Below, piece after piece: positions 4,960-39,365 of a stretch of 64,000 bases of DNA. The position numbers were made by a program, and so were the translations under genes. Source of the DNA: Camelus dromedarius (Eukaryota); assembly GCF_036321535.1 (NCBI RefSeq), contig NC_087436.1, positions 81,780,001-81,844,000 of the forward strand, read 5' to 3'. Each line of letters begins with the position of its first letter. Positions within the stretch are counted from its first letter, which is position 1. The notes below the pieces were generated by a model. It did not search any database and was not told the origin of the DNA. It worked only from the letters and a program-made list of their open reading frames with translations.

Positions 4960-5177
4960 ACAAAGAATCACAACTGGCTTATACAGCTCAATAGCAAAAA
5001 AAAAAAAAAAATCAAATAACCCAATTAAAAAATGAACCTGAATAAACATTTTTCCAAAGAAGACATATGAATGACCAACAGGTGCATGAAAAGGTGCTCA
5101 ACATCAGTAATCATCAGGTAAATGCAAACCAAAATCACAATGGTATATCACCTCACACCTGTTAGGATGTCTATTAC
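4960..5177 (+). mobile_element. L1 ORF2 C-terminal fragment
   Basis: 'aacatttttccaaagaagacata...gctcaacatcagtaatcatcagg..aaatgcaaaccaaaatcacaatg..atatcacctcacacctgttaggatg' is L1 ORF2 3' region. The same region recurs at about 6130-6340. Confidence 0.85.
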
Positions 5178-5178
5178 C

Positions 5179-6648
5179 TTGTTAGAACTAATAAACCAAT
5201 TCAGTAAAGTTGCAGCATACAAAAATCAGTTACATTTCACTGCACTAATAATGAACTATCAGAAATAGAAATTAAGAAAATAATCTCATTTACAATTGCA
5301 CCAAAAGGAATAAAATACTTAGGAATAAACTTAACTAAAGGGGTGAAAGATCTGTATGTTGAAATCTATAAGACATTCCATGCTCATGGATTGAAAGAAT
5401 TAATGTTTTTAATGTCCCTACTACCCAAAGTAATCTATAGATTCAATGCAATCTTTACCAAAATTCTAATGTCATTTTTTGGAAAAAAGGGAAAATAATC
5501 CTAAAATTTGTATGGAATCATAAAAGACCCCAAATAGCCAAAGCAATCTTGAGACAGAAGAACAAAGTTGGAGGCATCACACTTACTGATTTCAGACTAT
5601 ATTACAAAGCTATATGGTACGATATTGGCATAAAAATAGACACACAGATCAATGGAGCAGAACAGAAAGCCCAGAAATAAACCTATAACTACACAGTCGA
5701 TTAATTTATGACAAAGGAGGAAAGACTATACAAAGGGCAAAGGATAATCTCTTTAATAAATGGTGTTGGGAAAACTGGACAGTCACATGCAAAAGAATGA
5801 AACTGGATCACTATCTTACACCAGACACAAAAATAAACTCAAAATGGATTAAATACTTAAATTTAAGACCTGTAACTGCAAAACTCCTGAAAGAAAACAA
5901 ACAGGGTAAGCTTCTCAATATCGGTCTTGACAATGACTTTTTTGGATTTGATACCAAAAGCAAATGCTACAAAAGCAAAAATGAACATGTGGAACTATAC
6001 CAAATTTAAAAGCTTCTGTACAGCAAAGAAAATGATCAACAAAATGAAGACACAACCTATGAAATGTGAGGAAATATCTGCAAATCATATATCTGATAAG
6101 GGGTTAATACTCAAAATATATAAAGATCTCACACAACTCCATGGCAAAAAAAAAAAAAAAAAAAAACCCAGACAATTTGATTTTAGGATGGGCAGAGGAA
6201 CTGAATAGACATTTTCCAAAGAAGATACACAAATGGCCAACAGACATTAACAGAAAAATGCTCAACATCATGAATCATCAGGGAAATGAAAATGAAAACC
6301 ACACTGAGATACCACCTGACAATTGTCAGAATGGCTATAACAAAAAGACCACAAATAGTAAGTGTTGGTGAGGATGCAGAGAAAAGGGAACCCTTGTGCA
6401 CTGGTGGTGGGAATGTAAACTGATGCTGCCACTATGGAAAACAGTATGGATGTTACTCAAAAAAATTAAAATAGAACTACCATATGACCCAGCAATTCCA
6501 CTTACGAAGGTCTCTCCAAAGGAAGTGAGAACAGAATATCATAGAGATATCTGCACTCCCATGTTCAATGCAGCATTATTCACAATATTCAAGATACAGA
6601 AACAACTTAAGTGTCCATCAATAGATGAATGGATAAATCAGATGTGAG

Positions 6649-7108: not shown

Positions 7109-7196
7109 TTTGTTTATTTATGGAGGTACTGGAGATTGAATCCGGGATCTAATGCATGCTGAGCACAAGCTCTAACACTGGACTATACTCTCCCCC
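7109..7196 (-). mobile_element. tRNA-Ala-derived camelid SINE (Vic-1 type)
   Basis: Reverse complement GGGGGAGAGTATAGTCCAGTGTTAGAGC...GGATTCAATCTCCAGTACCTCCA plus A-rich tail, resembling tRNA-Ala(AGC). Confidence 0.85.
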
Positions 7197-11194: not shown

Positions 11195-11377
11195 TTTTAA
11201 AAATGTTTTAATTTGAGACATAATTGACATGTAACATTGTATAAGTTTAAGGCGTATAATATGTGGATTTGAAGAATTTATATATTGCAAGATGGTTACC
11301 ACCACAGCATGAGCTAACACCTCTATAACATCAAGTAACTATCATTTCTTTCTTACTGTGAGAACATTTAAGATCTC
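11195..11377 (-). mobile_element. L1 3' end (L1MA9/10-like)
   Basis: 'ttgagacataattgacatgtaacattgtataagtttaagg...gtgagaacatttaagatct' is an antisense L1MA 3' terminus. Confidence 0.8.
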
Positions 11378-11387
11378 AATAGTTTTT

Positions 11388-11479
11388 AATTAGGTTTATT
11401 TAATGGAGGTCCCGGGGGCTGAATCCAGGAACTCATGCATGCTAATCATGTGCTCTACCACTGAGCTATACTCTCCCCC
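11388..11479 (-). mobile_element. Vic-1-type tRNA-Ala SINE with perfect TSD
   Basis: Antisense tRNA-Ala-like body. AAGATCTCAATAGTTTTT is duplicated at 11370-11387 and 11480-11497. On the minus strand the target reads TT/AAAAA, the L1 endonuclease consensus. Confidence 0.9.
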
Positions 11480-11899
11480 AAGATCTCAATAGTTTTTAAA
11501 TGTACATCTTTTCCCTCTACTCCATCCATTTTTCAAATTAACTTTCTTACTACATAGAATGTTTCCAAAACCTGTAATTAATATTCTTCTCTTTTTACAT
11601 TCTTTCCCTTGGAACTCTTATCCAGTTTGATAGCAAAGGTATCCTACCTTTCATTCTTCAACTTTTATCTCTCTTTTATATTCTGGACTTACATTTCCAT
11701 TCTGAAGGGTGTCTTCACCCAAACTTACCATACACGCACCTTAAGTCAAAGAAAAATAAGGAAATTGTTGCGAGGCTCTTATTCCGTGTGGATCATCAAT
11801 ATGGACTACAGAGTAAAGTAACAAAGGTTTACTCTAGGAAGAAGAGTGAGATCCAGTTGTCAAGGGCCTCAGTCAGAAGATCATGGTTTACCAAATGCC

Positions 11900-13317: not shown

Positions 13318-13476
13318 TTTTTAAATTTGGTGGGGGGTAATTAGGTAGGTATGTATGTATGTATGTATGTATGTATGTATGTATGTATGTATGTATTTAA
13401 TGGAGGTACTGAGGATGGAACCCAGGATTTTGTGCATGCTAAGCATGTGCTCTACCACTGAGATCCCCCTCCCCAC
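13318..13476 (-). mobile_element. Vic-1-type tRNA-Ala SINE with internal (ATGT)n
   Basis: 'tggaggtactgaggatggaacccagg...gcatgctaagcatgtgctctaccactgag'. TSD AACTTAAAAACAATTGTT (13300-13317) versus AACGTAGAAACAATTGTT (13477-13494). Confidence 0.9.
13349..13396 (+). repeat. (ATGT)n tetranucleotide microsatellite in the SINE tail
   Basis: Direct reading. Confidence 0.95.
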
Positions 13477-26889: not shown

Positions 26890-27780
26890 AGTTCCTAACT
26901 TTTGCCTAATTTTCTATCAGGTTGTTATTGCCTTTATAATTAGGCTTTTTGATATTCTTTATTCTGTAAACCAATCCTTTCTAGGTTATACATGTAGAAA
27001 ATGTCTTCTCCTCACTTATGGCTTATTTGGTCACTGTCTTTTAATAAATAGCCGTTATTAATTTTAATATAGTTGAATTTATCCATTTTTTTCTTTATGG
27101 TTTGTACTTTGTGAGTCTTGTTTTAAATTTTTTCCAACCCCACATTTATAAAGATAGCCTCCCATATTGCCTTCTAAAAGTCTAAAAGTTTTGGGAAAGG
27201 TATAGCTCAGCAGTAGAGCGCACACTTAGCATGCAGGAGGTCCCGGGTTCAATCCCCAGAGCCTCCATTATAAATAAATAAACAAACAAATTTAATTATC
27301 TTCCCCCCCGCAAAGAAATTTAAAATATGTTAAAAGTCTAAAAGTTTTACCTTCCACAGTTTGGTCTTTAGTCCACACTGAATCTTTGTTCATGTATGGA
27401 GGGATATAAAGAGACAATTCCTTTATTTGCATGTAGCTAACGAATTATCTCAGCAACATTTACTACTCTAAAGAACAGTCACTCCTTTTCTCTCCTGAGT
27501 ATCGTCTCAACACCAGTACCACACTGTCTTAACTACTATAAATTTATAACAAATATTTCATACCTGATAAGGCAAATATCCCTGTTTTACTTTTTCTTTA
27601 AGTATATTTTGGATGATCTTAGACCTTTTCTGTCCTATATAAATTTTAGAATAAAGTTGCAATCTTTTACATACAACCTTTTTAGATTTTGATTGGAATT
27701 GCGTTGCTTCCATTAACCCAGTTGGCAGTAAAGGTGTCTTTACTGTATTCACTGTTTCTGTCCGTGAACACGGTATGTCA
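26890..27780 (-). mobile_element. Old L1 ORF2 fragment
   Basis: 'ccagtaccacactgtcttaactactata...tataaattttagaataaagttg...gattttgattggaattgc...ccgtgaacacggtatgtc' is antisense L1 ORF2. Interrupted by a SINE. Confidence 0.75.
27193..27330 (+). mobile_element. Vic-1-type tRNA-Ala SINE with perfect 18-bp TSD
   Basis: GGGAAAGGTATAGCTCAGCAGTAGAGCGCACACTTAGCATGCAGGAGGTCCCGGGTTCAATCCCCAGAGCCTCCA plus tail. TAAAAGTCTAAAAGTTTT at 27175-27192 and 27331-27348. Confidence 0.92.
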
Positions 27781-34860: not shown

Positions 34861-35968
34861 AAACTTTGGGAGCAACTTTTATGGGATTACAATGTTTTCA
34901 TTGATAATGATTGTTTTGTTTTACTGATATTTTTAAAGGAAGTATTTTAAGTTCATTTTCATTTCTTTAATTTTATTATGTATAAGTGAAGACTCCCAGA
35001 GTTAACTATATCACTTTTAAAACTATTATTATTTCTGTGTACAAAAAAAATATTTGCACTGGAGTGAAAATTAATTTTTCAGTAGAAGTTTCCAATATTG
35101 CAGTATGGCTGCTTATTGAGACTCCCATAAACATAAACCTGTTTGGAGTAAAGTTATCTTTCTGTATAAATTAAGTTTTGGGGTAATTGTTTTTGATCTT
35201 CAATCACAAATGATTCAGATATCACATTTTTTAAAACAATAAAATAGTGGTATTACATGAGCAAAAATATCAATATGCAGGGGGTTACATAGAAAAACAG
35301 TTATCAAACATCACCTTAACCATCATTGTTATGGTTCATTTGCTTTTGTAATCCAATTCCTCACACATATACAGAAGTCAATTTCTCTTTGAGAATTTCA
35401 AGGACATCCTTGAGAAAAGTGGAAATATGATGTGGTATCAAAAACCTGAGGTTAGAATTATCGTAATGAAATTTCAGATCAGTGAACAATTAATAAATAT
35501 TTCCATTTTAAGACAGGCACAGTATGACAAATAGCATAACATAAACAACTCCCCATCATCAACTCATTTTTCATTCTTTGACTACAGCCAGCTTGGGCTA
35601 TGAGGTAACCTTGGGAATGGAGGTTCATCCACAATAGACCAAGATAGAAGGACACAGGATCCCAGTCATGTACTTCAAGACATTCACAAGAAAGAAAAAA
35701 CTTTTTTAGGCCATTATTATTTGAAATTTTTTGCCACTCAGACTCAAACTAATACTAACTAATATAAAATTCTGCATACAAAAGTGAGCTGCTTCAAACA
35801 TAGAACCTGATATACATGGTACTTGTTCACTGAAAGTAGCTGGAATACTTTCCCATGGGCTGGAAAGGTAGCAACCCTTCCCATGTCTTAGCAAAATACT
35901 TGATAAAACTGTTACCTATGATAACTTGGAAGACAGACCACTTGCTAACTAAGAATGTAGTACTTGGG

Positions 35969-36419
35969 TGGCTCTCACTCTGTCATTCTATCTTCACCTT
36001 CTGAGATGGCCCGCACTCCGTCTATGGACTGTGTATCTCCTTTTACTTTAAACTAAACACCCCAGACCTCTTGGATTCTCTCCTTCTCACCTTTCTGAAA
36101 TGGCCCACATTCTACCTAAGGAGTATGTTATCTCCTAAGCCATTTTCCCTTCTGAGAGAGAGAGAGAGCACACTCTGTCCATGGAGTGTGTATATCTCTA
36201 AATAAACTTGCTTTCACTCTACTATGCCTTGCTCTTGAATTCTTTCCTATGTGTGGCAAGAACCTATTCGCCCACATCATCTTTGGCCAGCCAGCCAGGA
36301 GGATTCGGTAAATCTCAGCCTCTTAACTCCCTTGAGCTTGAGAGGCCTGTCTCTGTCTCTCTGTCTCTCTCCTGTGCACACTTCTCCTCTCTGCACCTCT
36401 AGCTCTTTCTTATTTTCAC

Positions 36420-36450
<31 letters not shown>
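35969..36450 (+). mobile_element. L1-mobilised retrocopy of an ERV1 LTR(R-U5)-PBS-leader transcript
   Basis: Perfect TSD AAGAATGTAGTACTTGGG (35951-35968 and 36451-36468). A30 tail at 36421-36450. LTR-type 'aataaacttgctttcact...ctcttgaattctttcct' with AATAAA at 36201. LTR-terminal CA at 36279. PBS at 36284-36301. Confidence 0.8.
36284..36301 (+). promoter_or_regulatory. Retroviral primer-binding site for tRNA-Arg
   Basis: TGGCCAGCCAGCCAGGAG matches 17/18 to TGGCGAGCCAGCCAGGAG, the complement of the tRNA-Arg(ACG) 3' end. It lies 4 nt after the LTR-terminal CA. Confidence 0.8.
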
Positions 36451-36454
<4 letters not shown>

Positions 36455-37599
36455 ATGTAGTACTTGGGAAATGATTAGAAAAAAGAAATCAGAATACTTG
36501 TTGGCTGTGTCAAATTCTTACAAGGTTGAGCTACAGCTAGCCAGACTTCAAGCAAAGGTGGGAAGAACTTCAGCTCTGCTGAGAGACCTATTCTGCCGAT
36601 AGCCTGCAATCAAAGGACACTGAAAATCTGATCAATTAGAATCTCTCGATTTTAAAAGCCGAGCATTCTCTCTCCCAACTGAAACAGTTTTAAGCAGTGT
36701 CTTAGAAACTCCAGTCTTAACAGTACATATGCCCTATCTTACCAAAGCTGTTTAAAAAGACAGATTTGAGATTTTGCCTTTTAATAATCAGCCCATTGCT
36801 TTAGTTGACTTCATAGCCATCATTAAGTTGATGGGAATGAGGAGAACTCAAAGGCTACCAATAGAGACCAGAGTTTTCATGAAAAAAAAATGACAAGTAT
36901 TTTGGCTGTGGTTACTTACATATGAAACTGACCAGTGCAAACAGACTGGAAGTCAAGTAAATTTGGGAGGAATTTTGTTGCCAAAGAATTCTCACAAGTC
37001 TAGCCTGCAAAAAGCTGTGATTGTTCAACACCTATAACACACTGGACATCTAAATCTGAATCAGCAGAAAGTAATAGATATAGTGCAGTATCCTCTCCAA
37101 TGCCTACCTCATTGTGGAGATGTAAAGATAACGAACAAGGAAGAATCCCCTAGAGGGTAGTGACAGGGCTACATAGGTTGATGGGCAAAGGACTTTCTCC
37201 AGGGGAGCAGAACCAGAGCTTCTAAAGGGGGTGGGGAGAGGAAGGGATAACCCAGAACTTACTCTCCTCCCAGAGAAGACAATCTTTCCCATTTCTGTAT
37301 ATTAGGATTTGGGTTTCACCCATTCTCCCCTTTCCCAAATGGGTGTGTCTTTTTTAGCTACCCTGCTCCTATACCACCATAGTATAGGAAAAGGGAAGCA
37401 AATAACTTATCCTTTAGTTTATGGTCACTGAAACAAGAGGAGCCAAATTGGGACCGGGTAGGAAATACCGTACATCATTCAGATCCTAGATTTTGAGGCT
37501 TTGATATGACTGACTTTGGAATTGTCTCTCTTAGAAAGACAGCAACAAATGCATTATTTATGTAGGAAGAAGGGTGTACAGAGCCAACACTGGAAAAGA

Positions 37600-38364: not shown

Positions 38365-39365
38365 TCTCAAATGTCTACTTAAAATTTCCCCATGGCTAGC
38401 TAAAAGGCATTTCAACCCTACAAGTCTCACAATGAATTCATGATCCTTTCCTATATGCACCCATATTCAAACCAGTTTCTCTTCCACTGTAACCTCAGTG
38501 AAATCACTACCATCCACCCAGTTATACAAGCCAGGGAATTAGGTGCAGTATCTTGACATCAACCCTTCCCTTACCCAGCACACCCAATCCATAAGTCCTA
38601 GAAACTGAATCCAAAGTATCTCTCTTGTAGTTCACTTTACTCCACCACCATTGCCACTACTCTAGTTTCCCTTTTTTATTCTGTGATCTACTGTGATAGT
38701 CTTTCAATTGGTCTCCTTTACATCTAGCCTGGCCTCTTTGCAACACATTTTTCATGCTGCTACCAGAATGTTCTTTATAAAAACTTAATCTGGTCACATA
38801 AGCCTCAGGTTTAAAATCTTTTGATGGTTCTCATTGCTCTTAAGATAAAGACCAAGCTCCATTAGAAGGACTATAAAACTAACACTGTCTGGTCCACTCT
38901 TCCCTCACTCTCTGTACTCCTGCCATGTGTAATGCACCATGCTCCCTCATGTCAGAGGGCCTCCCTCACTCTCTGTACTGCTGCCATGTGTAATGCACCA
39001 CGCTCCCTCGTGTCAGAGGGCCTCTGCTCATGCTGTCCTCCCCATCTAGAACATGCTTCAGTGCCCTCCCTTCATCCTCCATTTCCCCAGCTGACTCCCA
39101 TTCATATTTTGGAAATCAGGAAAATTTTTTCTGACTTCCAGTATAGGTTAGTTTTCTTCACTGCATGTTCTCACAGAATTATATTTCTCTCTCTTAGATC
39201 ACAATCTCAGTTTATAACTATATATTCATTTTATTTATTTATTTGTGTCTGACCATGAAAATTGGAACTGGGCCTGTTTTTTGTTCTCTGTTGTATTCTC
39301 AGTGCTTAGTACAATTTTTGGCTGAAAATAGGCACTCAATAAACACTGGTTAAAAGAATGAATGA
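38365..39365 (+). mobile_element. L2 LINE 3' kilobase
   Basis: 'ccatccacccagttatacaagcc...cattgctcttaagataaagacc...ggcactcaataaacactggttaaaagaatgaatga'. Confidence 0.8.
38901..39022 (+). repeat. 61-bp tandem duplication (2 copies, 3 mismatches)
   Basis: 38901-38961 and 38962-39022 align end to end. Confidence 0.95.

Follow-up and report, generated by a model that had tools for sequence, protein, structure and literature searches.

A probable one-off LINE-1 retrocopy of a short endogenous retrovirus RNA ending in the 5' leader

RNAs of endogenous retroviruses (ERVs) are among the templates copied by LINE-1 (L1), and the processed pseudogenes of HERV-W that arise in this way are described as making up 135 of the 213 HERV-W loci (PMC5016936, PMC5537654). 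These copies are defined by an R-U5 5' end, a poly(A) tail, a TT/AAAA site and a target-site duplication (TSD) (PMC5016936). Among ERVs, the copying of RNA by L1 is described as almost limited to catarrhine ERV-W (PMC5537654), and no L1-copied RNA is described for platyrrhine ERV-W (PMC6995185). The insert described here, which lies in a window of 64 kb (the whole stretch of DNA that was analysed), resembles the HERV-W processed pseudogenes in that an ERV RNA appears to have been copied by L1, with no U3, a poly(A) tail, a long TSD and a nick site that is at least partly TT/AAAA-like. As in HERV-W, the primer-binding site (PBS) lies ~4 nt after the LTR, and the Arg PBS is common in the HERV-W group (PMC5016936, PMC5537654); this type of PBS is considered to have low taxonomic value (PMC5016936). 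The differences lie at the other end. HERV-W copies are colinear with the mRNA and normally end in the 3' LTR, as the preliminary description of the insert had stated and the literature confirms, with a U3-R end (PMC5016936, PMC5537654), whereas the insert contains neither gag, pol or env nor a 3' LTR. It ends 120 nt past the PBS with no signal, while the HERV-W tail is found at the LTR poly(A) site; its TSD is 18 bp compared with the 5-15 bp quoted for HERV-W, and it is one copy, not a burst. Since the defining 3' U3-R end is absent, the insert is not classed as a HERV-W processed pseudogene.

SVA elements draw on the 3' end of HERV-K, which supplies a poly(A) signal of its own. The insert shares with SVA/SINE-R composite retroposons the principle of ERV-derived sequence moved by L1 (PMC5753468), but SVA is an amplified family and the insert a single 5'-end copy. 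The ARTenvV retroduplicate of Hippotraginae/oryx is likewise a single L1-made copy of an ERV RNA in an artiodactyl, with a 14-bp TSD and an A tract; its template was a spliced env mRNA, its ORF is intact and its parent is known, whereas the insert holds an unspliced, non-coding leader and has no parent that we could see (PMC9604959). A third likeness is to the Group II snRNA retrocopies (Doucet et al. 2015), in which 3'-truncated, poly(A)-extended snRNAs were copied by L1 with TSDs, so that an RNA cut short, a signal-free tail and L1 insertion are found together; the template there is an snRNA and here an LTR transcript, and the mechanism is likened by analogy (PMC4476161). Target-primed reverse transcription (TPRT) by L1 is well supported as the best explanation of the insert, and we consider it likely that the insert is a one-off L1 copy of a short RNA that an old provirus transcribed from its 5' LTR and that, after an early end in the leader, was tailed without a poly(A) signal.

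Anatomy of the insertion and its LTR part

The insert occupies 482 nt (35969-36450) between two 18-bp TSD copies on the + strand, at 35951..35968 and 36451..36468. The two copies are identical at 18/18 positions and the match can be extended on neither side; judged from base composition, the chance that this 18-mer recurs within 7 kb is ~1e-7. An uninterrupted A30 tail (36421..36450, + strand) directly adjoins the 3' TSD, and the A run reaches 32 when the first two TSD bases are counted with it. The nick lies at 35950/35951 in CT/AAGA, which reads 5'-TCTT/AG on the bottom strand and agrees with the L1 endonuclease consensus 5'-TTTT/AA at 4/6 positions; the departure at the other two counts against the L1 model. 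The perfect 18-bp TSD, the 482-bp insert, the A30 tail and the CT/AAGA site had all been reported before, and every coordinate was re-verified. Published TSD lengths are 4-6 bp for ERVs and 7-20 bp for L1 and SINEs, so that the 18-bp duplication fits L1 and not an integrase, as had been argued (PMC13756887).

The LTR part (35969..36279, + strand) is the 3', R-U5-like portion of a high-copy, presumably class I (ERV1-type) LTR and ends in CA at 36278-36279. That the insert starts with TG and its LTR part ends in CA could be taken as the mark of a provirus made by an integrase whose ends were later lost, but only 3/10 positions pair between the 10 nt that open the LTR part and the 10 nt that close it, so that the TG at its start does not mark an LTR end. 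With the TSD at 18 bp rather than 4-6, the upstream part of the LTR missing, and a deletion expected to add neither tail nor TSD, such a provirus, or an assembly artefact in its place, is scarcely credible.

We take the LTR to be ERV1/MER41-like. Contigs of other members of its family extend upstream of 35994/35997 by a median of 49-231 letters, and the LTR-side sequence they carry is absent here; the 5' part of the LTR is therefore missing from the insert, and no TATAA occurs anywhere in it, in keeping with the earlier reading of a 3' LTR part without U3 or TATA box. Within the R-like region, 35969-36206 is made up of three imperfect units of 60-80 nt, and the number of units varies among family contigs (joints back by 60/65/80, skips of 70-192). 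The copy is not typical of its family: at no fewer than 13 of the difference rows (40 of 131 are listed), at least 90% of the depth in run X4 carries another letter than the window copy, and the divergence from the X4 majority is at least 4.6% over 285 nt, a calculation into which 25 of the 40 listed rows entered, the other 15 all being below 60%. This places the origin of the template in an old or rare branch of the LTR family.

The LTR polyadenylation signal AATAAA (36201..36206, + strand) occurs once in the insert, 232 nt from its start, and was read through, as proposed, the tail following 215 nt later. Retroviruses normally suppress the poly(A) signal of the 5' LTR (PMC3694450), and read-through is what a 5' LTR would ordinarily show, with nothing further to explain. 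The same signal bears on the suggestion that the insert is an orphan 3' transduction or a 5'-truncated chimeric RNA, for which transcription of an upstream L1 or gene would have run on through an ERV fragment and reverse transcription would have stopped by chance inside the LTR. Transductions, 'parentless' ones included, are described as common (PMC13756887), and few family contigs have a counterpart to the first 25-28 nt of the insert (depth 44 at 35990). However, the 5' end lies just upstream of the first conserved R-like block, with no TATA motif, as expected of an end at a start site, and for an RNA begun far upstream, use of the AATAAA at 36201 would have been the likelier course; a transduction is unlikely. 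The insert may also be what is left of a longer RNA after 5' truncation at an arbitrary point.

Primer-binding site, leader and origin of the tail

The PBS (36284..36301, + strand) is complementary at 17/18 positions to the 3' end of tRNA-Arg(ACG), taken from PMC7757669, and follows the terminal CA after a spacer of 4 nt. Beyond it, the 5' leader (36302..36420, + strand) is 119 nt long and 72% pyrimidine, contains 16 A up to the junction, and has no AATAAA-like hexamer with up to two mismatches in the 66 nt before the tail. A donor-like CG/GTAAAT at 36308 (36305..36313, + strand) agrees with the splice-donor consensus at 6/9 positions and was left unspliced. The preliminary description had these features right: the tRNA-Arg PBS after the CA at 36279, the unused donor-like site, ~120 nt of CT-rich leader, and no poly(A) signal near the tail. 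A hairpin of ~14 bp is predicted at 36316-36349, just past the donor-like site; the predicted structure of the leader RNA is not above that of shuffled sequences (z -1.43, 16/200 as good).

The longest ATG-started + strand frame in the insert is 26 aa, which rules out a coding function. The A and B box patterns of Pol III promoters have no match in the insert, and runs of T4 occur at 36041, 36143 and 36413, which together rule out a Pol III origin. With no upstream promoter region and no Pol III boxes, the insert is likely a dead copy. Self-BLAST returned no second copy of the insert in the 64-kb window, and Rfam gave 0 matches in the window.

How the tail was acquired is where a second version of the same L1 event has to be weighed. 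ORF2p could have primed internally, at an A-rich tract in the leader of a longer proviral RNA, with slippage producing the A30; we regard this as possible but rather doubtful. What speaks for internal priming is that the last 66 nt before the tail hold no close match to AATAAA (two mismatches allowed); moreover, L1 ORF2p is described to prime in A tracts and to expand them (PMC3415434), and the ERV-W pre-gag, a related class I leader, has an AG-rich region of ~140 nt (PMC6995185). On the other hand, the leader is A-poor right up to the junction and the tail is uninterrupted, which favours signal-free tailing of an RNA that had ended prematurely. The junction ends in CA, a usual 3'-end dinucleotide, and no parent was seen at 80% likeness.

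An origin by L1 TPRT from an ERV 5'-end RNA, as first put forward, has the support of every hallmark open to test. Seen in the sequence itself are the TSD and the tail, a nick site partly like that of L1, the loss of the upstream LTR, the PBS and the unspliced leader. In the sequence of events that we favour, the template would quite probably have begun at the LTR promoter and passed the AATAAA of the 5' LTR. The RNA may then have stopped 120 nt past the PBS and been adenylated without a hexamer signal, a step whose chances we put at about even. L1 ORF2p would almost certainly have cut the bottom strand at TCTT/AG, begun cDNA synthesis on the A tail and left the duplication behind. On the depth comparison at 80% likeness, the copy did not amplify.

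Copy number in public sequencing runs

Four of the 24 public runs were compared with 35650-36850 at 80% likeness, all of them in the form of contigs: X4 (organism A DNA, the whole run read), X16 (organism B), and the RNA libraries X15 and X19; X20 (share 0.07) was left out. Summed contig depth is no copy number and serves as an order-of-magnitude contrast only. The leader depth was read over 37 bases, 36306-36342, and 36343-36464, which takes in the tail junction and the closing 78 nt of the leader, was skipped. Left-flank contigs were filtered from all four runs; the uncovered stretches 35650-35854 and 36343-36464 result from this filter and from the skipping of repeats, and were not used as evidence.

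The summed depth of X4 was 2,468-24,468 over 35978-36264, 182 at 36277 and 13.2 over 36306-36342. Relative to the unique right flank (depth 10.1), the leader is thus present at ~1.3x single-copy depth and the R-U5 part at ~200-2,400x (80% likeness). The leader gave 8.98 against 12.9 for the right flank in X16, and 11.3 against 9.35 in X15; a single contig makes up the whole leader signal in X16 as well as in X19. By this contrast in depth, the LTR family has very many copies and this leader about one. The approach does detect other proviral 5' ends, with leaders that differ, as X4 record 29 demonstrates: it shares the U5 and PBS (19 differences and 7 gaps in 177) and diverges at 36305.

These depths speak to the proposal that the insert belongs to a SINE-like family of LTR-derived retroposons whose members all end at one 3' breakpoint. 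The anatomy would suit such a family, and an RNA-library contig, X19 record 24 (depth 3.2, 36219-36342, no flank), could be its expressed source. Members would, however, need to share the leader, and the leader is close to single-copy at 80% likeness in 4/4 runs, which excludes such a family, apart from copies cut down to less than 78 nt, which would escape. The single copy in the 64-kb window and the absence of internal Pol III boxes point the same way, and a family of this kind is very improbable. The preliminary description had raised the family and named the one-off retrocopy as what would be left if no other copy shared this 3' end; with the leader at about one copy, the former is not upheld and, by that criterion, the insert is a one-off.

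A near-identical parent provirus was not visible at 80% likeness, and the depth fits one copy, two at most. A young copy ought to have a near-identical parent, and that none was seen at this likeness counts against the best explanation; the parent locus may have been lost, be hemizygous or have been filtered out. X19 record 24 has 2 differences in 124 and runs 63 letters further, in a run without flank cover, and is at most a weak hint of transcription from the insert locus or from a parent. Pattern scans for the leader gave 0 in metagenome_contigs, and the pattern scan of viral_contigs also gave 0; 8 metagenome_contigs loci with the U5+PBS pattern were dismissed as chance matches, with no similarity past the motif (best E 0.088). 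An index of scanned sequences likewise gave no look-alike of the insert.

Presence across samples, age and meaning of the insert

Among the best-holder rows, 14 of 24 are whole-genome-sized organism A runs with 0.95-0.97 of the words of 35300-37100. Without the 3 rows that belong to two samples which may be the source, 11 runs are left (11 samples, 6 studies), which argues against an assembly artefact; as a list of best holders, these runs give no allele frequency. A share of 0.95 as opposed to 0.97 was ruled out as an allele difference, since sample S2 yields both. The right-flank contigs of X4 and X16 both start 34 letters left of 36465, which is inside the A tract if the insert is present, and this too speaks against an artefact. 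X15 record 8 reaches 231 letters left of 36465 and apparently crosses the tail (36421-36452), where the X4 and X16 contigs break. By arithmetic only, this suggests a shorter A tract in the X15 animal.

An empty allele in X16 would predict a depth of 8.8 in the bin 35937-35977, where 0 was seen, and in X15 it would predict 8.9-9.3 over 35732-35895, where 0, 0, 2.45 and 4.75 were seen. For X4, 6.9 would be expected under an empty allele and 11.3 was seen, and depth alone does not decide. Of the 4 runs, 3 cover the right flank, and no empty allele was seen in these, nor any insert-skipping joint among the 15 of 44 joints listed; that the target was single-copy is therefore presumed. We infer that the filled allele is present in runs of two species labels, a statement about depth and contig ends in which no listed piece bridges insert and flank. 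Organism B contigs differ from the window at 1 in 226 and 1 in 143 positions in the insert and at 1 in 386 in the flank. The insertion is likely common to two closely related species labels, via descent or hybridisation. At 36534, a flank difference is common to X16 (organism B) and X15 and absent from X4 (organism A).

Two short SINE copies in the window (11370-11499 and 27175-27348, with a head of ~80 nt) keep exact TSDs of 20 and 18 bp, and further copies lie near 7116-7196 and 13395-13476; the bodies of the four are pairwise 72-80% alike. We presume that this short SINE resembles the camelid Vic-1 SINE. In the accessible text of PMC8605555, nearly all camelid SINEs are MIRs and 'Vic-1' has 0 occurrences. 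An 18-bp pair stays identical with a probability of 0.48 at 2% divergence per copy, and a perfect TSD as proof of youth is ruled out by these older-looking SINEs, whose TSDs are equally perfect. The pure tail still argues against great age. With the filled allele inferred under two species labels, no empty allele found and SINE TSDs just as perfect, the earlier suggestion that the insertion is recent and possibly polymorphic lacks support.

The left flank at 35896-35936 is matched by a few other contigs (X4 depth 57), consistent with an old interspersed repeat as target, presumably MLT1-int. Elsewhere in the window, a 61-bp tandem duplication (two copies, 95% matches) lies at 38901-39024, and two segments, 4983-5177 and 6133-6341, are 70% alike; broken frames within 4983-6341 (5689-6208) resemble, we assume, the C-terminal part of L1 ORF2.

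That L1 copies ERV RNAs is not new, and an end inside the leader makes this copy a minor structural variant. A literature search at the level of titles and abstract starts (subscription papers, Repbase and Dfam being outside its scope) returned no ERV retrocopy ending in the leader and no LTR-leader-derived SINE; short HERV-W copies relevant to how new the insert is may stand in the locus tables of PMC5016936. If the insert is indeed a lone dead copy, no function is expected of it; it is a possible presence/absence marker, given an empty site. A wider mechanism can be imagined, although we consider it quite improbable: old ERV 5' LTRs would fire in the germline, their RNA would be cut 100-150 nt past the PBS and tailed without a signal by nuclear surveillance, and L1 would capture the product. 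If this were true, leader-terminated retrocopies from different parents would form an overlooked genome-wide class that maps aborted ERV transcription in vivo, and the U5-PBS-leader contig of X19, which has no flanks, would be a short RNA still being made.

To what is known of ERV RNAs copied by L1, a clear example from a further mammalian order, with its end inside the leader, adds a little. The insert records an ERV RNA 3' end that no poly(A) signal explains, and it would gain in importance if many leader-terminated copies exist genome-wide, since these would attest that ERV transcripts end prematurely in the germline.
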